Source of the DNA: Candidatus Wallbacteria bacterium
GTDB lineage: Bacteria > Muiribacteriota > UBA9980
DNA length: 64,000 nucleotides
Direction of reading: 5' to 3'
NCBI GenBank assembly: GCA_022703765.1
Contig: JAKJHQ010000001.1
Location: 17,854 to 81,853, forward strand
Shown here: in pieces, positions 1 to 13,607 of the stretch
Position numbering within the stretch: position 1 is the stretch's first letter
How the letters are laid out: each line of letters opens with the position of its first letter
Program-made: the position numbers and the translations under genes
Notes under the pieces: model-generated
Databases searched by the model: none
Told to the model about the DNA's origin: nothing
Seen by the model: only the letters and a program-made list of their open reading frames with translations

Positions 1-2308
1 TAATAACCTTTTTTGCCTCGGCGCTTTCCGTATCGAAGTCATCAGGAAGATCTGAAATAAGCATCGATAAGGGAGGATAAAATTTAATGTCTTTTTTATT
101 TGGGAGCCATGGTTTTGATTTTAAAATTTTTAAAATTTCAGTTTCTTCTTTTGGATTTTTTGCCGTTGAGTAATAAAACGGATTTATGTTTCGCTTAAAA
201 GCATCGATTATAAATCTCCATAAAACGCAGGACTTAGAGATTGAAATGTTATCTAACAAATTATCAATACCTATAATAACAGGCTCTTTAAATATCGATT
301 TTTTATCGACCGGATTTGTTTTAAATCCAAGTTTATTTAATAAATCAATGTCATTGCTTTTAAAAATGTCCTCATATTCTTCAGATAAAAAGCAAATGTC
401 CGGATTTCCTTCAAAGAACTCTTCTAACATATCGTTACCAGAATACTTCAAAGGCAAAAACAATTCATCAGGCATAAAATAAGACAATTTTCCGGATAAT
501 TTATTCAAGCCGAGAAAGATCCTGGTTTCTTTAAGTTTTTGAATTAAAAGTTGTTTATTAGTAATATCTTTTCGAAAAATTTCAATTATTTTCTTTATAT
601 GGCATATGTTTTGGTCAACGGACGGCAAGACATCTGAATTGTATAAAGGCAAAATAAATTTAATTACTTCATCGATTTCATCAGGCTTTTTAATTCCGAT
701 AAGACTAAAGAAATCTTTCGTTAAATCACTTTCTGATATTCGCCTTTTAACCATCGAAAAATATGTATTGTTTTCATCAAATAAAAACACTTGAGGCCGT
801 TCATTTTCATCAAAAGGTTTAATATGGGAATCATTTTCAAGCCGGATAAATGGTTTATGCCTTAACAAGCCATCAGACGCGCAAGCGGCGGACTTTTTCT
901 GCCATAAAGAAATGCTTTTAGAAAGATAAAAATAAAAGTCAATAACCCATTCGTCGGATTGTTTTAATATAAAATCCATATCGAAAAGATCGGCGAATTT
1001 ATTGCCATCTATATTGTTTACTCGCAGTTTTTGCCTAAAATATAAAGCCAAATCTCTATATTTAAAAATATCCGGATGGATCATCCTGGCATTTATATTT
1101 TTAGTTAGTATATTTAAATTATTGTTTTGAGATAATAAATTTAATAATCTTGAGTTTTCAGCGTAATATGCGTTTTTATATTCGACATATCCCTCGTCAT
1201 CGTTTGGAATCAACTGTTCTTCTGACATAAGTTTTTCAAAAACTTTTTCATACGCGCTTCTAAATCTACTTTTTATAGGAAAATCAGATTCGTTGATAGG
1301 CAAAATATTTAAAAAATCCGGATTTAAAAAACCAAGTTTTTTGATTGATAAGATGCTATCGGATATCAATGTTGATATTTCACTGTTTAATTTTAAATTC
1401 CAAACATCGGCAGGCGGCACATTGTCTCTGGCTGGAGTTGTTTTATAGGGGCCTTGCACTAGAAATTTTAAACGCGTATCTATGTTAGTGGGAAAATAAA
1501 CTACAAGCTTTGAATCACTAATTTCTCTTATAGTTTCCGTTTTTGTTTTATCATCGAATTCAATTTTATAAGCAATTTCAACTTTCAAGTCAAGTTCATT
1601 ATTTTCTTCACTATTTACTTTTCTCTTAAAAACAAGCCATTTTTCGCCAATTTTTTTTGTAATATCCGAAACTATAACGATGCTGGACTGGTCATCGATA
1701 ATATTTACCTTCTTTTCGATTATACCTGCGGAACTTTGATTGATCCGCCATTCAAGTTTTTGAATATAATTTAAAAAAAGGATTGTCCTTACGTCGATTT
1801 CAATCAATTTCTTTTTAATTAAATCATATATTTCGTCTTTTGATCTTTTTTTATGCTCGAATTTGAAAACAAATTTTGTAATCTCCGAATTGTATTGAGT
1901 TTCGATAAGTTCAGGCAAAACTAAATTTTTTATATTAAAACTGTAGGTTTTGGAATAAATTTCTGGAGAATTTGTTATAGCATATACCGACTTAAAACCA
2001 ATTCCAAATTTGCCGATTTTATTGACGTCATCTTTTTTCGTGCTGTTACCGATGCTGGTAATCGAAGCGACGTCTTTAAACAAAAAACTAACACCGTCAT
2101 GAAAAAATTCAAGCCGGTCATCAAACAAAATAAAACTGACCGATTTAGCTTTTTGATCTTCCGCATTTTGAATTAATTCATAAATAAAATGAGAAGGATC
2201 GTCGTATAATCCGGAAAATATTTCTTCAAAATTGAAATTATTGTTAGGTCTTTTTAGAGCGTCAAGATATATTTTTCTATCATTAATCAGCTCATTAAAA
2301 TCATTCAT
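1..2308 (-). CDS. Large sacsin/MORC-like GHKL (Bergerat-fold) ATPase. The N-terminus lies in the window; the C-terminus runs past the window start, so more than 769 aa are present.
   Basis: An open minus-strand frame runs from ATG at 2306-2308 (GGAGG RBS at 2316-2320) to position 1 with no stop. The N-terminus carries Bergerat motifs: FIYELIQNAEDQKA (motif I, ExxxNxxD), HDGVSF (motif II) and GKFGIGFKSVY (motif III, GxxGxG). The six-frame track misses it because the stop lies outside the window. Confidence 0.6.
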   Translation of the reverse strand, partial: MNDFNELINDRKIYLDALKRPNNNFNFEEIFSGLYDDPSHFIYELIQNAEDQKAKSVSFILFDDRLEFFHDGVSFLFKDVASITSIGNSTKKDDVNKIGKFGIGFKSVYAITNSPEIYSKTYSFNIKNLVLPELIETQYNSEITKFVFKFEHKKRSKDEIYDLIKKKLIEIDVRTILFLNYIQKLEWRINQSSAGIIEKKVNIIDDQSSIVIVSDITKKIGEKWLVFKRKVNSEENNELDLKVEIAYKIEFDDKTKTETIREISDSKLVVYFPTNIDTRLKFLVQGPYKTTPARDNVPPADVWNLKLNSEISTLISDSILSIKKLGFLNPDFLNILPINESDFPIKSRFRSAYEKVFEKLMSEEQLIPNDDEGYVEYKNAYYAENSRLLNLLSQNNNLNILTKNINARMIHPDIFKYRDLALYFRQKLRVNNIDGNKFADLFDMDFILKQSDEWVIDFYFYLSKSISLWQKKSAACASDGLLRHKPFIRLENDSHIKPFDENERPQVFLFDENNTYFSMVKRRISESDLTKDFFSLIGIKKPDEIDEVIKFILPLYNSDVLPSVDQNICHIKKIIEIFRKDITNKQLLIQKLKETRIFLGLNKLSGKLSYFMPDELFLPLKYSGNDMLEEFFEGNPDICFLSEEYEDIFKSNDIDLLNKLGFKTNPVDKKSIFKEPVIIGIDNLLDNISISKSCVLWRFIIDAFKRNINPFYYSTAKNPKEETEILKILKSKPWLPNKKDIKFYPPLSMLISDLPDDFDTESAEAKKVI

Positions 2309-2363
2309 TAAAAACCTCCAAAACTTCTAATTTATAGTTAATTACATACGATGAACGGCGGTT

Positions 2364-3050
2364 TTATCTTCTAAACGGATTAATGTCATTGTTAGTGTGC
2401 AAAAAAACGTCGCCAATCGGTCTCACCTTTCTGTAATCTGTTTCATTATTATATCCTCCGAATCTGTTAACAAACATGCCATTTGAGAGCAAATACCACT
2501 TGTAACCGTGCTTCAACTTAGAAATTCCATGTTCTTTCATTAATTCAAGCAACGGTTTGACGCTATTGCTATTAAGATAATTATGTACAGTATTTAAAAC
2601 TTTTCTAATTTGAAGATCTGTTTCGTCAAATTGTTTTAAAAATTGGGATATTTCAACTTCTTCGCCTTCTATGACGTCTTCAATTTCACCATCTTCAACT
2701 TCGCCGTCTTCAATAAATTCATAGTCTAAATTTTTTCCTTCCCAAAAAGGTTGTATATCTCTGTTTGATCTTATAAATACATCGCCCAGTGAAGGAACTT
2801 GAGATACATGTCCCTGCTTTGAGCCATATCTGTTAACAAAATCGCCATTGACTTTTAAAAACCATTTTAAGGCGCCGTTTTCATTGTGATACAAGCAATC
2901 TACATTCATCTTCTCCATTAATTTAATAAGTTTGTGAACGCTTGTGCCTTTCAACTGACATGTGCTTCCGATCGGGACTAAAATTCCAAGATCAAGTAAT
3001 TTTTGAAATCCTATTTCGTGAAAAAATTCTATTGAATCGCGTTTATTCAT
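2364..3050 (-). CDS. Hypothetical protein made of two tandem copies of an unrecognised ~95-aa domain (W.L..G.FVNR[YF]GG ... GDVF...N.I[NQ]PF), joined by an acidic linker.
   Basis: ATG at 3050 with a GGGAGGG RBS. The halves are internally duplicated: KWFLKVNGDFVNRYGSKQGHVSQVPSLGDVFIRSNRDIQPF and KWYLLSNGMFVNRFGGYNNETDYRKVRPIGDVFLHTNNDINPF. The same domain opens the CDS at 6826..7941. Confidence 0.55.
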   Translation of the reverse strand: MNKRDSIEFFHEIGFQKLLDLGILVPIGSTCQLKGTSVHKLIKLMEKMNVDCLYHNENGALKWFLKVNGDFVNRYGSKQGHVSQVPSLGDVFIRSNRDIQPFWEGKNLDYEFIEDGEVEDGEIEDVIEGEEVEISQFLKQFDETDLQIRKVLNTVHNYLNSNSVKPLLELMKEHGISKLKHGYKWYLLSNGMFVNRFGGYNNETDYRKVRPIGDVFLHTNNDINPFRR

Positions 3051-3063
3051 TTCGTCCCTCCCT

Positions 3064-3405
3064 TTACATATTTATAATTTTCCATTGAGCGCTCTGACTG
3101 GGCCTGCCCTCTACATCTTTAACGCGACATTTAATTTTATGCAGGATGATTGGAAAAGTCGGCGTAGAACGACCCCTGGGCCATTTTCCGTTGCTTTCAG
3201 TATATGTCCCTTTTTCTTTATCAAAACAGTGGTCGCTTAACATTCTTCCTATATCAGCATTATATGAATCGCATACTGAAGTATCTTTATCTCTTAAATA
3301 TTGGCCTTTGATGGCAATTATAACGTCAATCGTATAAAATAAAGTCTTGCCTTCATCACGCCATTTTTTGATTAATTCTTCAATAAAAGTAACATGATCG
3401 AACAT
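3064..3405 (-). CDS. Small hypothetical protein of about 113 aa. The start was moved to an internal ATG that has a GAGGTG RBS.
   Basis: ORF 3064..3417. An ATG at 3403-3405 is preceded by GAGGTG. It sits 13 nt upstream of the next gene in the same orientation. No recognisable motif. Confidence 0.4.
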   Translation of the reverse strand: MFDHVTFIEELIKKWRDEGKTLFYTIDVIIAIKGQYLRDKDTSVCDSYNADIGRMLSDHCFDKEKGTYTESNGKWPRGRSTPTFPIILHKIKCRVKDVEGRPSQSAQWKIINM

Positions 3406-3504
3406 ATCGCACCTCACAATTCCGATTTTTATCTAATTTATTTACTCACATAACTAATAATTCTAACTTATTTTAAAATCAAAAAAATTATTAATTTTTT
3501 TAAT

Positions 3505-4803
3505 TTATAATGTTTCAATCTTCTTAAATTTCTCGATAATACTCTCGGTCACTGACTTTTCCGTTCTCGTTACAGCCTTCATTATATCGTCTTTAAGAAT
3601 GTGGTCACGCTCGATGTCATTCCGGTCGAAGGCGTCGAAGGCGGCTTCATCAACGATGTGCGCTATGTCTGCGCCGGAATAACCGTCAAGTGCGGCGGCT
3701 ATGTCTATCATTTCGGTTTCGCCGATCTGGCAGGCTTTGTCTTTAAGGTTGATTTTAAGGATTTTTAGGCGTTCTTCGGCGTTCGGCAGGCCTACATAAA
3801 ATTTCTTGTCGAAACGGCCGGGACGGAGGAAAGCTTTGTCGATTTTCTGCGGCTCGTTAGTGGCAGCTATAATGATTATCTGGCGGTCTTTTTCGTTGAA
3901 GAGCGTGCTTAATTGCGATAAAAGGACCGGCGTGATGCGCTCCATAACCGACGACGACTGGCCGTCGCGGGTCTTTAATATCCACTCGGCCTCATCCATG
4001 AATAGCACGGCGCGCGGCTGGCGTGCGATCTCGCTGAATAATTTTTCGAGGTTCTCCTCGGCCTCGCCGGGATAGCCTATTATGAATGAAGGGGTTATTT
4101 CGAAGAATTTCGCCTGTATCTCGCTGCTGATCGCGCGGGCAATAAGGGTCTTGCCCGTGCCGGGCGGACCGTAAAGGAGCATTCCGCCCCCGACGCGCAG
4201 TTTGAATTTGTCGGCGCGCTCAGGGTCCTTTGCGGGCGCGATGATGCGGCTTCGGATGAAGTTTTTGACCTGGTCGAGGCCGGCTACCTGATCGAGGTCG
4301 AAGCCGGCTTCTATTATCTGGCCGGGCAGGGCGGGCGGTTCGGCGTCGATCTCGAGGAATTCTTTGAGTTCGGGCGGCATGTCTTCGAGCGTGCCGTAGA
4401 ATAGTTTCAAGACTTTTTCGGTGATATCGGGGCCGTGAACCGGATATTGCGGGTATGAAAAGCATCCGAATTTCGCCAGTTTTAACTTGATTATTTTATC
4501 CAGGCGATCGAATGCGTTTTCTATGTATAAGATATTTGCGGTGACGGGGCGGACTTTGACATGAAGCGGATATTCGCCGCGGAACGCGCCCGGAACGAGA
4601 TTATAACCCGGCCGGTCTTCCGCCGCGAAAACGCCTATAAGATTTTGCCTTTCGGCATTATAAAGAAAGCCTATATGGCCTTTTTCAATGCTCTGCAGGT
4701 TGGCGTGATCGTATTTTACGCCGCCGAAGACGCCTTTTTCGATGCATTCGGCCTCCGTTTTGTTGTTGCAGATCCTGAAAAAGCACGGAACTTTTATCCT
4801 CAT
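3505..4803 (-). CDS. DCD-domain (PUA-like, EVE/YTH-related) protein fused to a classical AAA+ ATPase.
   Basis: The N-terminus has DCD motifs: FRICNNKTEAECIEKGVFGG, GFLYNAERQNLIGVFAA and PGAFRGEYPLHVKVRPV. The AAA module has Walker A GPPGTGKT, Walker B VLFMDEAE and second-region-of-homology ATNEPQKIDKAFLRPGRFD. The start was set at the second Met (AGGGGTGG RBS 5 nt upstream); the longest ORF begins at 4857. Confidence 0.75.
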   Translation of the reverse strand: MRIKVPCFFRICNNKTEAECIEKGVFGGVKYDHANLQSIEKGHIGFLYNAERQNLIGVFAAEDRPGYNLVPGAFRGEYPLHVKVRPVTANILYIENAFDRLDKIIKLKLAKFGCFSYPQYPVHGPDITEKVLKLFYGTLEDMPPELKEFLEIDAEPPALPGQIIEAGFDLDQVAGLDQVKNFIRSRIIAPAKDPERADKFKLRVGGGMLLYGPPGTGKTLIARAISSEIQAKFFEITPSFIIGYPGEAEENLEKLFSEIARQPRAVLFMDEAEWILKTRDGQSSSVMERITPVLLSQLSTLFNEKDRQIIIIAATNEPQKIDKAFLRPGRFDKKFYVGLPNAEERLKILKINLKDKACQIGETEMIDIAAALDGYSGADIAHIVDEAAFDAFDRNDIERDHILKDDIMKAVTRTEKSVTESIIEKFKKIETL

Positions 4804-4893
4804 AAAGACCACCCCTGTTAATGAATTAATTTTATCAATTATAAATTTATTTGTCAAATAATAGTTTAAGTAGATTTGATATTTTTTTATATG

Positions 4894-5283
4894 CTATCTG
4901 CCGTCTTCCTGACTTTCAATCCTCGCGATGCGTTTTCTTAATTCCATTAATAATTGGAACATGTTCATCTTCCGGAACAGCATTTCGCTTCTCATTTCGC
5001 TTAGCGCTCTTTCTCTTAGTTTCGCCTGCCGTCTTTCTTCTTTCTCAAGCTCAATCCGCTTCTGCTCTTCGTACTGACGTTTTAGCACGTCCAGTTTTTC
5101 TTTTTGCTTTGCCTGGATTTGCTGCCGGTATAACTTGACGTAAAGCGGTGCAAATCCAATTATAGGTCCAAGGATCGCGATATAGGGATTTTCTAAAGCA
5201 TAGTTGCCGCATATAAAGATGACGGCGATAATAAAAATCATCGATTTGACGTATACCCATATAAAATCAAACAGCGTTACCAT
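4894..5283 (-). CDS. Small membrane protein with two predicted TM helices and a charged coiled-coil C-terminus.
   Basis: GAGGAGGT RBS. Hydrophobic N-terminal segments IFIIAVIFICGNYAL and ILGPIIGFAPLYV, then a K/E/R-rich heptad region. Co-oriented within the cluster. Confidence 0.5.
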   Translation of the reverse strand: MVTLFDFIWVYVKSMIFIIAVIFICGNYALENPYIAILGPIIGFAPLYVKLYRQQIQAKQKEKLDVLKRQYEEQKRIELEKEERRQAKLRERALSEMRSEMLFRKMNMFQLLMELRKRIARIESQEDGR

Positions 5284-5378
5284 ATAAATACCTCCTCATC
5301 ATATTTGTAATAGCCGGAAATGGCAATAACATGAATACGAAAAGTTTGCGCTAATTCACTAAATTTGCCTTCATATGA

Positions 5379-6818
5379 TTAAATCGCTTCATCATCTGGT
5401 ATCTGTACATATTCGTTCCGTGACCTTTCGGCGAGGTCCGCCCGGCCGCATTTTTCGTAATATTCAATAGACAGACGGAAATGTTCTCGCGCGCCCCGCA
5501 TCGCGCCATAGGCGGCGAACTCGAGCCCGGCCGAATAGTGGAGCCGGCCCATGTAAAGCGCATTGGTAACGCCGCGCTCGCCGGCAGTTGCGATAGCACG
5601 GCAGTAAAGTTTTAGAGTAGTTTCATGATCGTCAAGCGCGTTTGAATACGCGTCGCAAATGCTCAATAAATCGCGCAGGGGCCTCACGTTATCATCGGAT
5701 ATCAGGCCCAGGTATAATTCGGCGGCGAGAGGCAGATAAGTTTCCGCCGCACCGGTTTCGCTAATGGCGATTGCGGCTTCGGCAATGCCTTTGTATGCAT
5801 CGGCAAGCAGAATGTCGCGGCCAGGCGAAGACGGCATATCCGCAAGCAGGCCGGACGCCGCGCTGAACGCTTCTAAGGCGCCGCGATAGTCGGTTACACA
5901 CATAAGTGAAGAGCCGCCGGTGTTTTCGATAGAAGCGAATACCTCGGGATCGTTAATGCCGCACTCTATCGTATGGCGCTTCAGATCGGCGTTATAAGAG
6001 ATCGCCATGCCGTACCAGCCCAGCTCGGCGCAGGCAAGAAAAGCGAGCTCATAGGCTTCGCGAAGATCGGCATATGGAAAAGAAACCGCCGAAAAGGGTT
6101 TTGGCGGAATATTGCCCGAATGCTCCACCGCCGCATAGCCGTGCTTTTCAATTAAGCCCTCATAAACGGATATCGCGCTGTTTAACTGGCGGAACGCTTC
6201 TTCATATCTGTCGGCCTCCAACAAATAACGGCCGTAGCAGCAATAATAATCGGCGACGGCCGGATCGTTGAGACCGCGCGCCTTCAATATCTCGATCAGC
6301 GCAAGACGCATGTCTTCGCACGCGCCGGCATATTCTTTAAGGGCGCAATGCGCGGCCGCGCGCTTTTTTAATATCATATATTTTTGAACGCTTTCGCTAC
6401 TATCCAGGTCGGACGCCGCGCCGGCTGCGTCACGCCACATTTCTGAGTCGTCGAGGGCCTTTAACGCTTCTTCGAAGCTCCCGTTCTCAATATGGATATA
6501 TGCCGCCGAGTAAAATGCGGTAGCAATGCCGGCTTTGTCCACCGCGCCGCCGCGCACGAAAGTTATGAGCGCCGATTCTATTAATTTAAGCGCCTGCTCG
6601 AAACGGCCGGCGTCATACTCACGCCAGGCTTCTTCGAGCAGCGCACGCGCTCGGTCGGCGCTCGAGCCGGCAAATTCGTCAATACGCGAGGCTGCAAGAG
6701 CAGAAAGTTCACTTATCGAAGGGACCGGTTCATCGGCGGGATCGTTTTGAGCGGCGCCCTCTCCGTGAGGGGTCTGAAAATATTCATCGAGCCTGTCTAA
6801 AAATTCTGAATCGCCCAT
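5379..6818 (-). CDS. TPR-repeat protein.
   Basis: Repeated helical motifs with A/L/Y/G spacing typical of TPR, for example FEQALKLIESAL, YEEAFRQLNSAISVYEGL and ALYMGRLHYSAGLEF. GC-rich gene, 7 nt downstream of the preceding gene. Confidence 0.65.
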   Translation of the reverse strand: MGDSEFLDRLDEYFQTPHGEGAAQNDPADEPVPSISELSALAASRIDEFAGSSADRARALLEEAWREYDAGRFEQALKLIESALITFVRGGAVDKAGIATAFYSAAYIHIENGSFEEALKALDDSEMWRDAAGAASDLDSSESVQKYMILKKRAAAHCALKEYAGACEDMRLALIEILKARGLNDPAVADYYCCYGRYLLEADRYEEAFRQLNSAISVYEGLIEKHGYAAVEHSGNIPPKPFSAVSFPYADLREAYELAFLACAELGWYGMAISYNADLKRHTIECGINDPEVFASIENTGGSSLMCVTDYRGALEAFSAASGLLADMPSSPGRDILLADAYKGIAEAAIAISETGAAETYLPLAAELYLGLISDDNVRPLRDLLSICDAYSNALDDHETTLKLYCRAIATAGERGVTNALYMGRLHYSAGLEFAAYGAMRGAREHFRLSIEYYEKCGRADLAERSRNEYVQIPDDEAI

Positions 6819-6825
6819 AATAACT

Positions 6826-7941
6826 TCACCTTCTTCCGCCCGCGGGCTTTCTTTTTAAATAAGCCTCCAGCGTGACCGCAAGCTGCGGGTTAGCGCAGGC
6901 GACCTTCAGCATCTCATAAAAATAATCGCCTTCGAGCTCCCGGTAGGCGTCAAGTATATCTTTCCAGCCGATAAGCCTTACCCGCGAAGGATTGCAGCCC
7001 GCCGGACGCAATCCTTCTTCATAGTCAGGCGCGCTTCCCTCGCCGCGGGGGGCGCCGGTTAATTCGGCCAGCAATCCGGCTTCAAATTCAGCCGTAGGAG
7101 AAAGAATAAGGCCGACATGCGCAAAGTTTTCGGGCGGCATGGCGTTGCGCTCCATGATAGTATTTATAACAGGCATCTGCCTGCGCATCTGGGCGGCGAG
7201 ATCGGACGCCGTCACGTAGTCGTACATCTTCGCCTCGACCACCACCAGGAATTTTTCGCCGCACGCCGCGCGCAGCAATATAACGATATCCGGCGTGTCG
7301 CGCTTTATATGCCATACTTCCCGCCAATCCAGGGCGGATTCTTTGAGCGAATATTCGGTGTAGAAACATATTTCAGAATTCGAATATTCAGTTTTGATAA
7401 ATTTATCCGGAACGCCGGCCATTTTAAGAAAAATATGCAGACGGCTGAAACGGCCGCCGCAGACTATATTCGGAAATACGCATGAAGTCCAGTAGCGTTC
7501 TTTCCTGTTAAGCGGCAGCGAGTTTATCATATCGTTCATTTCACCGGCGCGCTCGAGATCGGTTGCGCGAAAGGCGCGGGCTGCAGAGCCCGGGAGTTCG
7601 GGGCGCCCGGACGGGTTCAAGCCGCCAGGTTTCTTGCAGTAAAAGGGATTAATGCGCCTGTTGGCCCCTCTAAATACCTCACCCATAGAAGAAACCGATG
7701 TTAGCTTAACCGGTTCGTCATGGCCGCCATAACGGTTTACGAAAACGCCGCCGGACTCCAGCGACCAGTCTTCGCCGAATTCCAGCCCGGAAACGCCTTT
7801 CTGCTCCATAAAAGCCATAAGCGGCGCAACGCTCGCGCCAGTAAGAATAAGCTTTTCACCGTTGATTATCCCGAGCTTCATAAGCTTGCATAGCCCCGCA
7901 GACTCCAAAAATACGGTAATGTTTTCAACAACGCCTTGCAT
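6826..7941 (-). CDS. Fusion of the unrecognised ~95-aa domain (N-terminus) to a PD-(D/E)xK nuclease-fold domain (C-terminus).
   Basis: AAAGGGGTGA RBS. The N-terminal copy is DWSLESGGVFVNRYGGHDEPVKLTSVSSMGEVFRGANRRINPF. The C-terminal half has a textbook motif, TPDIVILLRAACGEKFLVVVEAKMYD (PD ... ExK), with an upstream acidic EICFYTEYS. Confidence 0.6.
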   Translation of the reverse strand: MQGVVENITVFLESAGLCKLMKLGIINGEKLILTGASVAPLMAFMEQKGVSGLEFGEDWSLESGGVFVNRYGGHDEPVKLTSVSSMGEVFRGANRRINPFYCKKPGGLNPSGRPELPGSAARAFRATDLERAGEMNDMINSLPLNRKERYWTSCVFPNIVCGGRFSRLHIFLKMAGVPDKFIKTEYSNSEICFYTEYSLKESALDWREVWHIKRDTPDIVILLRAACGEKFLVVVEAKMYDYVTASDLAAQMRRQMPVINTIMERNAMPPENFAHVGLILSPTAEFEAGLLAELTGAPRGEGSAPDYEEGLRPAGCNPSRVRLIGWKDILDAYRELEGDYFYEMLKVACANPQLAVTLEAYLKRKPAGGRR

Positions 7942-7973
7942 ATTATCACCCCTTTTTAAATTATAAAATAAGA

Positions 7974-8080
7974 CTCATTTTTATTTCATGCGGGCAGGTA
8001 TTAGTGAATAGTGTACAGTGAATAGTGAATAATGAATAGTTAAGGTTGGGGATCGCCCTGCGAGCTTTATATATAAAATA
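7974..8080 (+). repeat. Intergenic repeat family, head module (H), copy 1.
   Basis: tcatttcatgcgggcagg, then tandem agtgaatag-like units, then the ggggatcgccctgcgagc hairpin, then tttatatataaaatat. About 85% identical to 32538-32640. Inverted copies lie at 37420-37523 and 43291-43355. Confidence 0.8.
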
Positions 8081-8288
8081 TAAAAATATTCTACCTACTT
8101 TTAATTTTAGCAAAATATTATAAAAAAGTCAATAATATTCAAAAATATTTTTACCCTTTTTTAAATATTATTACCCCCTTCTGTTTTAAGTTGATTTATC
8201 AATGCATTCCTTTATACCCAAAAGCTCCCACATCAGGCGGCATAATTAAAACGCTTACCATAAAACCATAATTTCAATTTACTGAACG

Positions 8289-8606
8289 CCATAATTGCTG
8301 CGCAGACGCGAGCGAAGCGCGCGTCTGCAAAATAAAAAAACAGAGATGAGCGGAGTAGATTTGAGAAAAAGAAATAATAAATTAGAGCAGAGTAAAGTTG
8401 AGTAGAAATTTTATAGAAAAAGAGAGAAGAGAGAAAGAAAGGCTAAATAAAGTAAAACAAAAAAAAGAGAAAAGCAAACCGAATTAAAGCCGCGTCAGAA
8501 AAGCAGTCGCCGCAAGGCAATAAAGCGTCAGGCAGTTTAGGGGTTGGAAGGGATTTTAAGGGAAGGAAGGGGCCATCGGCACCTTGCCTTCCCTTATCAA
8601 AAAACA
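8289..8606 (+). repeat. Composite structured element, copy 1. It has a perfect 9-bp-stem hairpin, a purine-rich tract of about 180 nt and a long imperfect palindrome.
   Basis: ccataattgctgcgcagacgcgagcgaagcgcgcgtctgcaaaa at 8289-8332. An A/G-rich tract at 8333-8520. aaagcgtcaggc...aggggttggaagggattttaagggaaggaaggggccatcggcaccttgccttcccttatcaaaaaa at 8522-8606. The same modules occur in the same order at 23590-23820. Confidence 0.75.
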
Positions 8607-8633
8607 GGATATTTAAATGGAATAATCGGGGTT

Positions 8634-9281
8634 TTATTTTTCCAGCCATTCGGTCAGTATGGATTTGATATTATTTACGGCCCTGCGTTTTTCGGGGCTG
8701 CTTTTGCCTATATACTGCGTATCCAGAAGGAATTGAAAGGTTTTCACGGCCAGTTCGTCGGATATTTGGGTTTGTCTGCCCGAAGAAAATCCGGAGGCGG
8801 TTTCTTCGCCGGCCTCTACGGAGCGTTCCGCGGAGTCGGCCTGCGGAGCCGGGGCCGCATGGGTTTCGGCTGTTTTAAGAAGTTCGGTCACGCCTTCGCG
8901 GTCGCCTTTTTCGATCGGGCTTTCATCCACAATATGAAGCGCTTCGGCGGCGTCGATTTCGTTGAACATGACCGATTTAAAAAGTTTGGACTGTTCGCTG
9001 GAAAATTCGGCCCATTTCCTGTCATGGTAAAGAAATCTTGAAAATACGCCTATTTCGAGCGGCGATATGACGGCCGCGTCGGCGCCCGCTTCTTTGATGA
9101 GAAGCATATATATCTTGCTGTTATCGATATCGGTTATGAATATGCGTTTATTCCAGCGTGCGAATTTATTGTTGAAGAAATCCGCGGCGTCGAATATGTC
9201 TTTCGACCGTTTGCGGAAGTCGGCGTTCAGGCCCTTTTCTGAAGGCGTCTTGAGCGCCACTATTACTTTGAAAATTTTCAT
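8634..9281 (-). CDS. Hypothetical protein.
   Basis: 215-aa ORF with an AAGGCGG RBS and mixed, non-repetitive composition. The overlapping plus-strand ORF (8544..9041) is G/F-rich, consistent with an antisense artefact. Confidence 0.5.
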   Translation of the reverse strand: MKIFKVIVALKTPSEKGLNADFRKRSKDIFDAADFFNNKFARWNKRIFITDIDNSKIYMLLIKEAGADAAVISPLEIGVFSRFLYHDRKWAEFSSEQSKLFKSVMFNEIDAAEALHIVDESPIEKGDREGVTELLKTAETHAAPAPQADSAERSVEAGEETASGFSSGRQTQISDELAVKTFQFLLDTQYIGKSSPEKRRAVNNIKSILTEWLEK

Positions 9282-9304
9282 ATGACCGCCTTGCTTTTTG
9301 GAAA

Positions 9305-10399
9305 TTATTTGATTTTACCAGCCGTTAATTTTTCGAAAGTTTCGTTCATCAACGGGTATTTAACTATGCCGAGTTTATAATCGAAATGCCACCATTCGTC
9401 TTCGTAAACTGTAAAGCCGGCCTTGTTCATATAGCGTTCTAAAAGTTTTCTGTGCCAGCGGGCGTTAGAGGTAGCGCCTTCGAATTTAGGCGAAGCGCGT
9501 TCGCTGAATTCGTCGTAGCCGCTGCCCATTTCGATCAACTTTCCGGTTTTGAGATCGTAAAGGCCGACATCCACTGCCGTGCCGCGATTATGGCGCGAGC
9601 CTTTCGACGGGTCGGCCACGAAATTTTTCTGCGCGGCAGGCGTCGCGTCGTAAAACATTTTAGTGACGTACCAGGGTCTGTAAGCGTCGTAAACTATCAT
9701 GGCGAGTCCGTGGCGTTCGAGCGAGCGGGCGACATATAAAAGGCCGTAAGCCGCCGGTTTCTGTAAAAACGCGCCGGGCGAGTCATAAAATTTAGCGCCC
9801 ATGAAGTTATTTTCGGTGGCGTAGCGGATATCAAAGATCAGGTTACCGCCGAGGTTTTTAAGGTCCACGAGTTCAGATTCGCATGTGGCGTCGGCTTCGC
9901 GCGGCGGCCCGGCGGAAAGCGCGGCGCGTTTTAATTCGCCGATCGGTTTGAGGGGTTTTATTTTATAAGTCCCGCCGTTTTCGGAGCCGTAAACAAGCTG
10001 TTTATAGAGAGTTCCGTTAACTTCGCAATGGAACCGGGCGCTTCTGACGGGCGCGTAAAATTCAACGGAGCGGATCCCGCCGGGGAGTGAATCGCCGGCG
10101 GAATAACGCATGCCGTTAATTTTTGAAAGGTTATAATACTTGCCGTCGCGGAGTATTTTTAAAACTCCGGAGTCTTCGAGAGCGATAAAGGAATCGCGTG
10201 CGTCGTTAATATTTTCATACCTTCCGAGCAGCGCTTCGATATCGGCGGCGGGGCGGGGCGGCGCCTGGCCGAAAACCTCATTGAACGAGGGTTCCGGCTG
10301 AAAAGCCGGCAGCGAAGATACGTCAAAGCATATAGCCAGCGCGGCAAATATAAAAACTAAAAGGTTAAAAAACCTCGTTTTATTTTTCATTAAGATCAA
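9305..10399 (-). CDS. Secreted D-Ala-D-Ala dipeptidase family protein (VanX/DdpX-like, peptidase M15) with an N-terminal extension.
   Basis: Signal peptide MKNKTRFFNLLVFIFAALAICF. YDAYRP, SRHNRGTAVDVGLYD (the zinc-binding SxHxxGxAxD motif) and EDEWWHFDYK (EWWH[FY]). Confidence 0.6.
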   Translation of the reverse strand: MILMKNKTRFFNLLVFIFAALAICFDVSSLPAFQPEPSFNEVFGQAPPRPAADIEALLGRYENINDARDSFIALEDSGVLKILRDGKYYNLSKINGMRYSAGDSLPGGIRSVEFYAPVRSARFHCEVNGTLYKQLVYGSENGGTYKIKPLKPIGELKRAALSAGPPREADATCESELVDLKNLGGNLIFDIRYATENNFMGAKFYDSPGAFLQKPAAYGLLYVARSLERHGLAMIVYDAYRPWYVTKMFYDATPAAQKNFVADPSKGSRHNRGTAVDVGLYDLKTGKLIEMGSGYDEFSERASPKFEGATSNARWHRKLLERYMNKAGFTVYEDEWWHFDYKLGIVKYPLMNETFEKLTAGKIK

Positions 10400-10423
10400 C
10401 CTTTCTTTTAAAGCGGTGGTTTA

Positions 10424-11935
10424 TTAATATACCGGCTCGATATTCTGCTTCCAGTATTCAAGGAGTGTAAATTCCATGTTAGTTCTGGAGCCTTTTAAAT
10501 TGACGACCGGCATCTGAACCGCCAGGGGCAAAAACACGGGGTCTTCGGAAACGGGCGACAGAGCGGCGTCGGTTTCGCGCTGTATGTTGTATCTGTACGG
10601 GTCCATATTACCGAAGAAGTATTCTTTAAAAAGCTTCTTCTGGGTCGTGGTAGCGCCGTAGGAGCGGTCGATGATCTGGGCCACCGAAGTATCAACGGGC
10701 ACCCAGCCGTAGTTCGGAAGATAAAACTCCGCCCAGAAATGTGGGCCTGCGATTCCGGGGATCAGCTGATAACCGCCGGAGGATTTAGCGGGAATTCCGA
10801 CGGCGCGGCAGAGCGCCGCGAAATACATGCTCTGCGCGCCGCAGTCGCCGTAACCGCGCTGGTGCACGTAAACGGATTCGGGCATGCCGGTAACGCCGAG
10901 GGCCAGGTGGGGCATAAGGCTGTATTTTATATTGTCGAGGACGTAAAAATAAATTTTACGGGCGGCGAGGTACGGATTTTTTTCACCGGCGGTTATTTCG
11001 AGGGCTTTAGCTTTTATTTCGGGCGTAACGGCGGTATTTTTATTATCGCGCGTATATTTTTTATAAAGCGGGCTTTCGACGTCGTATTCGCCGCAATTAG
11101 CGGGATCGATAACGAAGCGCTGTTCATAGCGTTTGTACATGAATTTGATTTCGATATCGAGGTCTTCTTTGAGTTCGGCCAGAGGCACTTCGAAGTAGGC
11201 AAGGCTTATGTCGGTATCGGGTTTGGGCAGGGATTTCAAATATTTCTGCGGCGAGAAAGATATGAAGCGCACGTCGGCCTGCGCGGAGCTGAGTATGGGC
11301 ATCGGGAACCACATCTGCAGAAGGCCGGTTTTGGGGAGTTTACCGCGCGGCACTTTAAGGGTCTGGACGCCAAGATAATCTACGGGATTGATATTGGTTA
11401 TAGAAGGCGGGGTGCAGACGCTCTTGCCGCTGGGCCTGAATATGATATCATAAAGCGCTTCGCAGGGTTTGCTTTTGCTTTTATCGACTTTTTTATAAAT
11501 GTCGTCGTCGCGGAAAAGCACGTTGGCGATGAAATTCTGCTGATAATAGGGTTTGCCGTCGATAAGTATGAAGTCGTTTATTTTACCGGTTTTAAACCAC
11601 GATTCGCGCTCGCCGTCGCCAAACGCGCGAAACGATCTGGCGGCGAGTTTTTTAGCTTCGGCTTCGCCGTATGGGTAGGTAACGAATATTTTTTCGATTT
11701 GTTTTAATCTATGGTTGGACTTAACGAGTATATCATCGTTATTTTCGCGGCCGGCTTCTCTTGCGGCGCGTTCGTACATTTTAACGGCCTTGAAGTAAGA
11801 CGAGTTCTTTTCGAGCTCGCACGCTTTAGAAAAAGTATCGGCCGATGCCGCAAAAGCGGGGCATACCGTTGAAAGTAAAAAAGCTAAAAAAATAAAGAGC
11901 GTTGAAGCTCTTTTAAGCCTGGACGTTAACTTCAT
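10424..11935 (-). CDS. Secreted transglutaminase-like (TGc) cysteine protease-fold protein.
   Basis: Signal peptide with a GGAGG RBS. Cys-His-Asp core context: YGDCGAQSMYFAALCRAVGIPAKSSGGY ... GPHFWAEFYLPNYGWVPVDTS. Confidence 0.6.
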   Translation of the reverse strand: MKLTSRLKRASTLFIFLAFLLSTVCPAFAASADTFSKACELEKNSSYFKAVKMYERAAREAGRENNDDILVKSNHRLKQIEKIFVTYPYGEAEAKKLAARSFRAFGDGERESWFKTGKINDFILIDGKPYYQQNFIANVLFRDDDIYKKVDKSKSKPCEALYDIIFRPSGKSVCTPPSITNINPVDYLGVQTLKVPRGKLPKTGLLQMWFPMPILSSAQADVRFISFSPQKYLKSLPKPDTDISLAYFEVPLAELKEDLDIEIKFMYKRYEQRFVIDPANCGEYDVESPLYKKYTRDNKNTAVTPEIKAKALEITAGEKNPYLAARKIYFYVLDNIKYSLMPHLALGVTGMPESVYVHQRGYGDCGAQSMYFAALCRAVGIPAKSSGGYQLIPGIAGPHFWAEFYLPNYGWVPVDTSVAQIIDRSYGATTTQKKLFKEYFFGNMDPYRYNIQRETDAALSPVSEDPVFLPLAVQMPVVNLKGSRTNMEFTLLEYWKQNIEPVY

Positions 11936-12143
11936 AAAAACCTCCGGTATATTTTATACAAACGCGCGCGAGTCATAAACCTCGGGCGCATTATCATTAT
12001 ATACCAAACAAAGCGGAGGTGTCAATAAATTAAAAGCCATGCCGGTCATAAATAATTAAAAACAAAAAAGATTTTTTTTATCGATAATCGTTAATTTTTA
12101 TGTTATAATAATCCAAAAATTTTTAGAATAAGGAACTGCAAAA

Positions 12144-13607
12144 ATGAGCTCCAGACAGGTAGAAGAAAACGGCCTTTTCGAACTGGCCGACGCGCACCGT
12201 GAAAACATAGAAAACAATTCACTTTACAGTGAAGACCTCAAGCCGGTAAGCATAGAAGAGCGCACATGGAGCAAAAAGCATATAGCTTCGCTATGGGCGG
12301 GCATGAGCATATGCATACCCACATATACGCTTTCGTCCGGGCTTATCACCAGCGGAATGAGCTGGCAGCAGGCGATTTTAACTATATTTCTGGGCAACCT
12401 TATAGTTTTGATACCCATGATTTTAATCGCGGCGGCGGGCACAAAATACGGAATACCGTATCCCGTTTTCTGCCGCGCGTCTTTTGGAACGCGCGGGGCG
12501 CATCTGCCTTTGCTATTACGCGCGGGGGTCGCCTGCGGCTGGTTCGGGATCAACTGCTGGATAGGCGGCGAGTTCATGTACATGGCGTTTGCGGGCTTCT
12601 TTCCGGCGCTGGCGCTTTACCCGCAGGCTAAATTTATAATATTCCTGCTGTTTCTGGCGGCGAATCTGGCAATCGCGTACCGCGGCCATGAAGCGGTCAA
12701 GATGCTCGAAGTTTACTGCGTACCGATACTTATCGCCATAGGAGTCGCGATAGCCGCATGGGCGATTTACGTCGCCGGTTCGCTTTCGGCGCTGCTCAAC
12801 GCCGGCGAAAAGTTCGCGCCGCTGCGCGCCTCGGCCACGAAATCTTTCGGCGAGCTTTTTCTGCCGTCGCTGAACGCAATGATATCATACTGGGCGCCGC
12901 TCGCGCTCAATATTTCCGATTTCACAAGGTTCGCCCGCAGCCAGAAAGACCAGGCGCTGGGGCAGCTTATAGGGCTTCCGCCGGCCATGGCGTTCTTTTC
13001 GATGGTAGGGGTTTTCGGAACGCTCGGTTCGATGATCGCCTTTAATGAAATGATATGGAACCCGGTTTACACGGTGGTGGCGTTTAAAATGCCGTGGTTA
13101 AGCCTTTTAGGCGGCATACTGGTTTTTATAGCGATAATAACCACAAATATAGCGGCTAACGTGGTGGGGCCGTCGAATATCTTTTCAAACCTCAGCCCGC
13201 AAAACATTCCTTACAGGTACGGCGTTTTAATAACGGGCTTCATAGGGCTCATCATTATGCCATGGAAGCTTTACGCCGAGCCTACCGGCTATATTTTCAA
13301 CTGGCTGGGCACTTACGGCTCTTTTCTGGGGCCGCTTACCGGGCTTTATATCGCCGACTACTATATAATCAAAAAGCGTTATTTAAGCATTTACGATCTT
13401 TATTCTGACGATTCAAAACTTTACGGCTACAGCGGCGGCGTTAATTACGTGGCATATCTGGCCTACGCCGTCTCGGTAACCCCTTTCGTAATGGATCTGG
13501 TTTTCGGTTCGTTCGGCGGCGCAGTCGTAAATAATTCGTGGTTCATCGGGCTGGCGCTTTCTCTGGCCGTTTATACGTCGCTGATGAGAATTTTCTACGG
13601 CAAATAA
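12144..13607 (+). CDS. NCS1-family nucleobase:cation symporter (a cytosine/purine/hydantoin/allantoin-type permease).
   Basis: Twelve-TM profile. N-terminus EERTWSKKHIASLWAGMSICIPTYTLSSGL ... PYPVFCRASFGTRGAHLP is typical of NCS1. AAGGAA RBS. Confidence 0.8.
   Translation: MSSRQVEENGLFELADAHRENIENNSLYSEDLKPVSIEERTWSKKHIASLWAGMSICIPTYTLSSGLITSGMSWQQAILTIFLGNLIVLIPMILIAAAGTKYGIPYPVFCRASFGTRGAHLPLLLRAGVACGWFGINCWIGGEFMYMAFAGFFPALALYPQAKFIIFLLFLAANLAIAYRGHEAVKMLEVYCVPILIAIGVAIAAWAIYVAGSLSALLNAGEKFAPLRASATKSFGELFLPSLNAMISYWAPLALNISDFTRFARSQKDQALGQLIGLPPAMAFFSMVGVFGTLGSMIAFNEMIWNPVYTVVAFKMPWLSLLGGILVFIAIITTNIAANVVGPSNIFSNLSPQNIPYRYGVLITGFIGLIIMPWKLYAEPTGYIFNWLGTYGSFLGPLTGLYIADYYIIKKRYLSIYDLYSDDSKLYGYSGGVNYVAYLAYAVSVTPFVMDLVFGSFGGAVVNNSWFIGLALSLAVYTSLMRIFYGK

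Follow-up and report, generated by a model that had tools for sequence, protein, structure and literature searches.

A minus-strand gene at positions 6826 to 7941 of a 64,000-nucleotide stretch from a Candidatus Wallbacteria bacterium (GenBank assembly GCA_022703765.1, contig JAKJHQ010000001.1, positions 17,854 to 81,853 of the forward strand; the whole stretch is called the window below) very probably encodes a real nuclease of the restriction-endonuclease fold, belonging to a family that is catalogued by no database. The product, a protein of 371 amino acids (aa), is annotated by NCBI as a hypothetical protein (HPG58124.1 / OQA79399.1; Candidatus Wallbacteria / bacterium ADurb.Bin243). We consider it probable that it is the metal-dependent effector endonuclease of a two-gene cassette, with DNA as the likeliest substrate, in which a tetratricopeptide repeat (TPR) protein and the nuclease's own N-terminal domain (N-dom) would be responsible for control or sensing.

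The nuclease gene and its motif

The open reading frame (ORF) starts with an ATG at 7941, 5' of which there is a GGGGTG ribosome-binding site. The parts of the gene are as follows:

6826..7941, minus strand: nuclease gene, 371-aa two-domain protein (N-dom, linker, PD-(D/E)xK core)
7636..7941, minus strand: N-dom, residues 1-102, alpha/beta
7522..7635, minus strand: linker, residues 103-140, predicted local distance difference test score (pLDDT) 46-59, with alignment gaps
6847..7521, minus strand: PD-(D/E)xK (restriction-endonuclease-fold) core, residues 141-365, including the signature LPxNRKERY (142-150)
7228..7290, minus strand: codons of the catalytic hairpin (D218 at 7288-7290, E236 at 7234-7236, K238 at 7228-7230)
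Minus strand: other conserved codons (E148 at 7498-7500, E196 at 7354-7356, Q251 at 7189-7191, Q255 at 7177-7179)

The linker is either disordered or predicted with low confidence, and its length differs between homologs.

The first-pass annotation of this DNA had quoted a peptide from the C-terminal half of the protein as a textbook PD-(D/E)xK motif. The peptide is found verbatim in the minus-strand ORF 6826..7941, the translation of which contains ...EICFYTEYSLKES...TPDIVILLRAACGEKFLVVVEAKMYD. The motif residues are E196 and E201 (within TEYSLKES), P217-D218 and E236-A-K238; D218 is separated from E236 by 17 residues. We note that the bare PD...(D/E)xK pattern is not rarer than chance, and that alone it proves nothing: PD-x(10-25)-[DE]xK is present in 4 of the 54 window ORFs of at least 150 aa as compared to 4.35 in shuffled sequences, and E...PD...ExK in 3 of the 54 as compared to 2.0. 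The motif is significant because it is conserved across a family, not because the pattern is rare. In other words, the word "textbook" is justified by the conservation described below and not by the frequency of the pattern, since shuffled sequences contain it equally often.

Conservation and extent of the family

A search of 5.8 billion proteins returned 37 relatives, none of which has a Pfam domain or an informative name. In the first alignment, i.e. that of the window protein and these 37 relatives, E201, D218, E236, K238, Q255 and H275 are invariant, and so are P143, R146 and K147 upstream. Among 1.84 billion cluster representatives, a profile search recovered 763 proteins at E <= 0.001, 598 of them at E <= 1e-10, which puts the size of the family at about 763 clusters at 50% identity. 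The conservation of single residues was counted in about 181 family sequences:

R146: 173 of 174
E148: 173 of 174
E196: 178 of 180
E201: 154 of 181
D218: 180 of 181
E236: 178 of 181
K238: 179 of 181
Q251: 178 of 181
Q255: 180 of 181

E201 is less conserved than the other positions, which suggests that the relevant upstream acidic residues are E196 and probably E148, the latter at the start of helix alpha1. The family signature can be written as LPxNRKERY ... (F/Y)TEY ... TPD ... EAKM(Y/F) ... Q...Q. That all catalytic positions are almost invariant in hundreds of divergent sequences points to an active-site signature rather than to a decayed or chance motif.

The distribution of the family is patchy and includes Ignavibacteriota, Bacteroidota, Myxococcota, Actinomycetota, Chloroflexota, Planctomycetota and others, with at least 62 loci among 185,579 species genomes (individual loci are denoted by L numbers below). 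A phage or plasmid origin was considered and rejected, as tblastn gave no match in 50,697 phage and 72,556 plasmid records. Of 50 loci, 12 (L004, L045, L053, L057, L059 and others), each with a GC content above 55%, hold a family member that failed a filter on the GC content of third codon positions (GC3) passed by its neighbours. The test is crude, and the failures hint at an atypical composition and at horizontal acquisition of family members.

Predicted fold

The AlphaFold2 model of the nuclease, calculated from the 38-sequence alignment, has a mean pLDDT of 83.3, and most blocks of the core are at 90-97. The following elements are predicted along the core:

Residues 148-160: helix alpha1, begins with E148
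Residues 191-195: strand beta1
Residues 196-202: short helix, carries E196
Residues 219-224: strand beta2, with D218 immediately before it
Residues 230-237: strand beta3, contains E236, with K238 right after it
Residues 245-265: helix alpha2, with Q251 and Q255
Residues 273-279: strand beta4
Residues 321-325: strand beta5, preceded by a helix

The predicted order is the canonical alpha-beta-beta-beta-alpha-beta, with a helical insert between beta1 and beta2, and the catalytic residues are at the usual places along the chain. The restriction-endonuclease fold that had been claimed from the motif is thus corroborated by the model: as far as the predicted order of secondary structure elements is concerned, the motif residues do not fall outside the core geometry. 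The marks by which the superfamily is recognised, i.e. D218 at the start of beta2, (D/E)xK on beta3 and the upstream acids, are each conserved to at least 98%.

Search for known families

The window nuclease has no match in Pfam, NCBIfam, PADLOC (0 hits) or the PDB sequences, and no family match was obtained for any of the 38 members of the first alignment in Pfam, PADLOC and PHROGs. Pfam models of nuclease families gave no match at E <= 1 in any of the 38. Among named families there was no profile match to Mrr_cat, NucS, McrC, HamA/DUF1837, SduA/DUF4263, Cap4 or PDDEXK_1-n, and the PDB sequences were matched neither by the single protein nor by the 38- or 130-sequence profiles. The PADLOC candidate PDC-S26 gave short and weak matches in 4 distant members (20-55 residues, best E 0.0013), which centre on the PD...ExK segment; the window protein and most members, in contrast, give none. 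As the similarity is restricted to the region of the catalytic motif, it is not a sign of membership.

The TPR partner and the behaviour of the cassette

Two neighbours are needed to describe the arrangement of the loci:

5379..6818, minus strand: TPR partner, 479 aa, Pfam TPR_12
8634..9281, minus strand: c2, 215 aa, heads the variable island

The start codon of the TPR gene is 7 nucleotides (nt) past the stop codon of the nuclease gene. Neighbour clustering covered 61 non-redundant loci. A homologous TPR gene lies beside the nuclease in 7 loci, including L001, L005, L006, L017, L018 and L019; different TPR proteins adjoin the nuclease in L015 and L020, and in L021 it is adjoined by a cut ORF homologous to the TPR protein of L015. 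Across related loci the TPR gene is the sole consistently linked neighbour. The genes for the DCD-AAA+ protein, the 117-aa and 228-aa proteins and the sacsin-like protein, all downstream in the window, are not consistently linked to the nuclease.

The gene c2 lies upstream of the nuclease in 7 loci, and in L001, L005 and L018 the order is c2, nuclease, TPR, VIT-vWA. In L079 and L081 VIT-vWA follows directly after c2, with no nuclease or TPR gene between them. From this presence and absence between c2 and VIT-vWA we conclude that the nuclease-TPR pair behaves as an insertable cassette in a variable island.

N-dom and the stand-alone branch

Most family members are stand-alone proteins of about 280-300 aa that consist of the core and a C-terminal domain of about 90 aa. 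The pattern of this domain is GR.GG..G...D...G.W....YE...N.NWF (alignment A1, columns ~505-620), and neither Pfam nor the PDB gave a match for it; some members (P0024, P0026) carry it in duplicate. The window nuclease does not have it and carries N-dom and the disordered linker instead. The possibility that N-dom is a permuted form of the C-terminal domain was rejected, the hhalign probability being 0.3%. The model of N-dom is confident, yet a structural neighbour was not found in the PDB.

A scan of all fetched loci and of the whole window with a hidden Markov model (HMM) found N-dom only in the nuclease subfamily and, twice, in a further ORF of the window:

2364..3050, minus strand: 228-aa protein, two N-dom copies joined by an acidic linker

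The two copies are recognised with 37-39% identity and E values of 9e-20 and 8e-16. The tandem protein was seen in this genome only, i.e. none was found within up to 10 kb on each side in the other N-dom loci. In an N-dom profile search of the set of 5.8 billion proteins, the split N-dom fragment of L019 was the only protein listed; known N-dom proteins are absent from this list, so the reach of that search is doubtful.

For the stand-alone branch no recurrent partner was found by neighbour clustering or by Pfam and PADLOC scans of 133 flanking ORFs, which were called crudely; the defence genes that turned up were scattered and few. Some stand-alone copies adjoin type I restriction-modification, BrxR, DISARM, IetA, TIR or resolvase genes.

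Promoter and leader of the nuclease gene

The region upstream of the nuclease gene contains the following features:

7942-8633: AT-rich spacer, 692 base pairs
8104..8132, minus strand: promoter-like site TTGACT-17-TAAAAT with an extended -10 TG
8002..8085, minus strand: conserved non-coding leader

The gene had been described as the first of its cluster. This is true in the sense that it follows the AT-rich spacer with the promoter-like site, and not true in the sense that the 215-aa c2 gene lies just upstream of that spacer. Conserved copies of the promoter-like site precede the homologs in L006 and L017. A 77-nt block of the leader (8010-8085) is 88% identical to L005, although the nucleases themselves are only about 52% identical. 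It ends in 5.6 tandem heptamers, TATTCAC-like, at 8002-8040, and other short tandem repeats occur in the leaders of L001 and L005. The heptamer leader could act as an operator array or as a regulatory RNA. Neither a structured RNA nor a tRNA was found in the window by Rfam at the gathering threshold and ARAGORN.

Neighbouring genes and composition of the islands

The rest of the array downstream of the TPR gene consists of the following features:

4894..5283, minus strand: 129-aa protein, two predicted transmembrane helices and a charged coiled-coil tail
3505..4857, minus strand: DCD (PUA-like) domain plus classical AAA+ ATPase, IetA/CDC48-like
4857..4829, minus strand: own promoter-like site of the DCD-AAA+ gene
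3064..3417, minus strand: 117-aa ORF
1..2308, minus strand: sacsin-like HATPase gene, runs off the window start

In window 1-3500, which comprises the 117-aa, 228-aa and sacsin-like genes, the GC content drops sharply to 30-34% as compared to 45-53% elsewhere; this segment looks like a separate acquisition. A full-length copy of the sacsin-like protein in L007 has 1056 aa with SACS and NOV_C domains. The DCD-AAA+ gene is a variable neighbour and not a conserved partner. The ATPase of its product resembles IetA, an anti-phage ATPase. In place of the annotated TTG at 4857, an ATG at about 4803 may be its start (432 aa in L007), and close homologs adjoin very large SF1 helicases in L020 and L081. 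A homolog of the 129-aa protein is found in L006 (1474-1779), between the nuclease and TPR genes; the protein is only weakly similar to KwaA and the SMODS-associated 4TM effector (S_4TM), with E about 0.001-0.01. We conclude that the gene "cluster" of the window is a mosaic and not one conserved system.

With 67-70% identity across loci, the c2 protein is better conserved than the nuclease. Its globular N-terminal domain is accompanied by an acidic linker of low complexity and a helical tail of 45 aa. An assignment of c2 to the FinO/ProQ-type RNA chaperones was considered, given a borderline RocC match (E 0.013), and set aside as unconfirmed: hhalign against an E. coli ProQ sequence gave a probability of 1%, and we keep it as a weak lead only.

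In other loci the surroundings vary. L001 (12840-18487), L005, L018 and L006 share a downstream set next to the nuclease-TPR cassette, namely VIT-vWA (about 800 aa), a Schlafen/AlbA_2-HATPase_c_4 protein, a small Q/N-rich protein (95-185 aa) and a 361-420-aa protein whose match to the PolIII-alpha NTPase domain is confined to the N-terminal part of that domain. The neighbours in L020 are an AAA+ protein and a 2650-aa helicase, and those in L015, L019 and L021 are a 159-aa protein and a TPR protein of 690 aa. The variable islands of Candidatus Wallbacteria also carry toxin-antitoxin genes and genes of a defence type; their contents include ParE/Phd, CopG/BrnA, Schlafen-AlbA_2, helicases and sacsin/NOV_C.

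Proposed function and alternative explanations

We propose that the nuclease would cleave as an endonuclease dependent on a divalent metal (Mg), DNA being the likeliest substrate, and that it would be the damaging, i.e. effector, half of the two-gene cassette. The TPR protein and N-dom would restrain it or sense a trigger; stand-alone members may leave this regulatory role to their fused C-terminal domain. The analysis shows the motif and its conservation, the predicted fold, the linkage to the TPR gene and the behaviour as a cassette, and from there nuclease activity, substrate, the direction of regulation by the TPR protein and N-dom, and a role in defence are inferred. The first-pass annotation had called the protein the likely effector nuclease. 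As regards a nuclease, this agrees with the motif, its conservation and the predicted fold; as regards the cluster, such a role would reach beyond the TPR gene, to which alone the linkage is consistent.

Several observations speak against the proposed function. The N-dom locus L013 is without a TPR neighbour, and the N-dom loci come from related organisms, so that part of the conservation of gene order could be inherited synteny. The neighbourhoods of the stand-alone members are mostly heterogeneous and include housekeeping genes, which does not speak for an enrichment in defence islands. Moreover, the nuclease is matched by no sequence model of a known nuclease family or defence system.

A more far-reaching version, which we regard as possible but doubtful, is that the nuclease-TPR pair is a new two-gene system against invaders and N-dom a new coupling or regulatory fold. 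The TPR protein would sense an invader protein and release or assemble the nuclease through N-dom, and the tandem N-dom protein would be a decoy or adaptor for the same interface, possibly an anti-defence gene of a mobile element. The stand-alone branch of about 760 clusters would then be a widespread and uncatalogued single-gene defence nuclease.

McrBC, a type IV restriction system, combines a reader domain and an AAA+ motor with the PD-(D/E)xK protein McrC. The window array is similar in that it has a DCD domain, which is of the modified-base-reader type, in a DCD-AAA+ protein, together with a PD-(D/E)xK nuclease. In an explanation along these lines, modified invader DNA would be recognised by the DCD-AAA+ protein, whose gene lies three genes downstream, and this protein would then recruit the nuclease or activate it in the way that McrB acts on McrC. 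It is in accordance with this that the co-directional array itself encodes the DCD domain (PF10539, E 3.7e-13) in fusion with an AAA+ domain whose Walker motifs are intact, that in the Wallbacteria locus L020 a close homolog lies two genes after the nuclease, and that EVE/DCD readers are known to partner with systems of the McrBC type (PMC7641849). However, the AAA+ domain is in the classical CDC48/FtsH/IetA-like clade (PF00004) and not in the McrB GTPase clade, and the co-occurrence is not conserved: the DCD-AAA+ gene stands alongside the nuclease in just 2 of 11 N-dom loci, and in L081 it is about 5.6 kb from c2, beside a helicase, with no nuclease there. It also has a strong promoter-like site of its own, and none of the 38 members matches the McrC family. 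We consider this explanation unlikely.

The 7-nt gap that couples the two genes tightly, the behaviour of the pair as a mobile cassette and the abundance of ParE/Phd and CopG/BrnA modules in the surrounding islands would also suit a plain toxin-antitoxin or addiction pair, in which the nuclease is the toxin and the TPR protein its neutraliser, and which stabilises the island rather than acting against phages. Mechanistically this overlaps with the effector cassette proposed above. The TPR partner, however, is a large repeat scaffold (479-546 aa), unlike the typical small antitoxins, and most of the family stands alone, which is hard to square with unconditional toxicity. A plain addiction pair is quite unlikely in our opinion.

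A housekeeping nuclease of DNA repair or recombination (NucS/EndoMS-, Mus81- or resolvase-like), rather than an effector in conflicts, would explain that NucS/EndoMS and Mus81 are among the structural matches and that some stand-alone relatives sit among housekeeping genes. We regard it as very unlikely in view of the sparse, patchy distribution (the at least 62 loci mentioned above), the variable gene neighbourhoods, the presence and absence of the cassette between c2 and VIT-vWA, and the lack of a match to NucS or any other repair-family HMM. Finally, a fold without nuclease activity (a binding-only module) or a coincidental motif, for which the frequency of the bare pattern in shuffled sequence could be cited, is hardly credible, as the catalytic positions are near-invariant and the predicted fold is independent evidence to the same effect.

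Comparison with known systems

The closest known systems are within the PD-(D/E)xK superfamily, i.e. the cleavage domains of N.BspD6I/FokI, the Mrr-like nuclease of LlaBIII, the nuclease domain of Cap4, AF1548 and NucS. No sequence-profile link to any of these was found, and the family differs from them by its own signature and by the helical insert between beta1 and beta2. In its proposed action the protein would be comparable to the restriction-fold effectors represented by the Avs3/4, Cap4, FokI and Mrr-type domains, while belonging to none of their sequence families.

Avs3 and Avs4 are antiviral STAND proteins with an N-terminal effector of the restriction-endonuclease fold and a TPR sensor. 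The window pair likewise combines a nuclease with a TPR module. It differs in that no STAND or NTPase domain was found in the pair, in that the TPR module is a separate polypeptide that matches TPR models only, and in that the nuclease bears an unrelated N-terminal domain. As regards type II restriction-modification, there is no methyltransferase domain in the genes from 2364 to 13607, nor in the N-dom loci.

A further comparison is with the effectors of NTP-dependent conflict systems that are coupled through effector-associated domains (EADs) (Kaur, Burroughs, Iyer, Aravind 2020; PMC7159879). N-dom resembles an EAD in its position at the N-terminus of an effector and in its recurrence in the 228-aa protein of the same array, and the same islands hold VIT-vWA and TPR components. 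In contrast to EADs, however, N-dom matches no Pfam domain family, those of EADs included, and its second occurrence is not fused to a core NTPase or vWA component and is limited to this genome.

Significance

As one more nuclease of the restriction fold in a variable island, the gene is of an expected kind and does not represent a new mechanism. The new features are the large uncatalogued family, an N-dom without structural neighbours and the pairing with a TPR protein free of NTPase. The family adds a sizeable branch to the restriction-endonuclease superfamily. This branch, which Pfam, NCBIfam, PADLOC and the PDB all lack, extends over many phyla of bacteria, and it was structure prediction alone that revealed its identity. 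The Wallbacteria form offers a compact test case for the NTPase-free control of a restriction-fold effector. Should the pair turn out to act in defence, the Avs principle of a "TPR sensor plus nuclease" would be carried over to a two-gene format free of NTPase; otherwise, several hundred "hypothetical proteins" would still receive a usable annotation.

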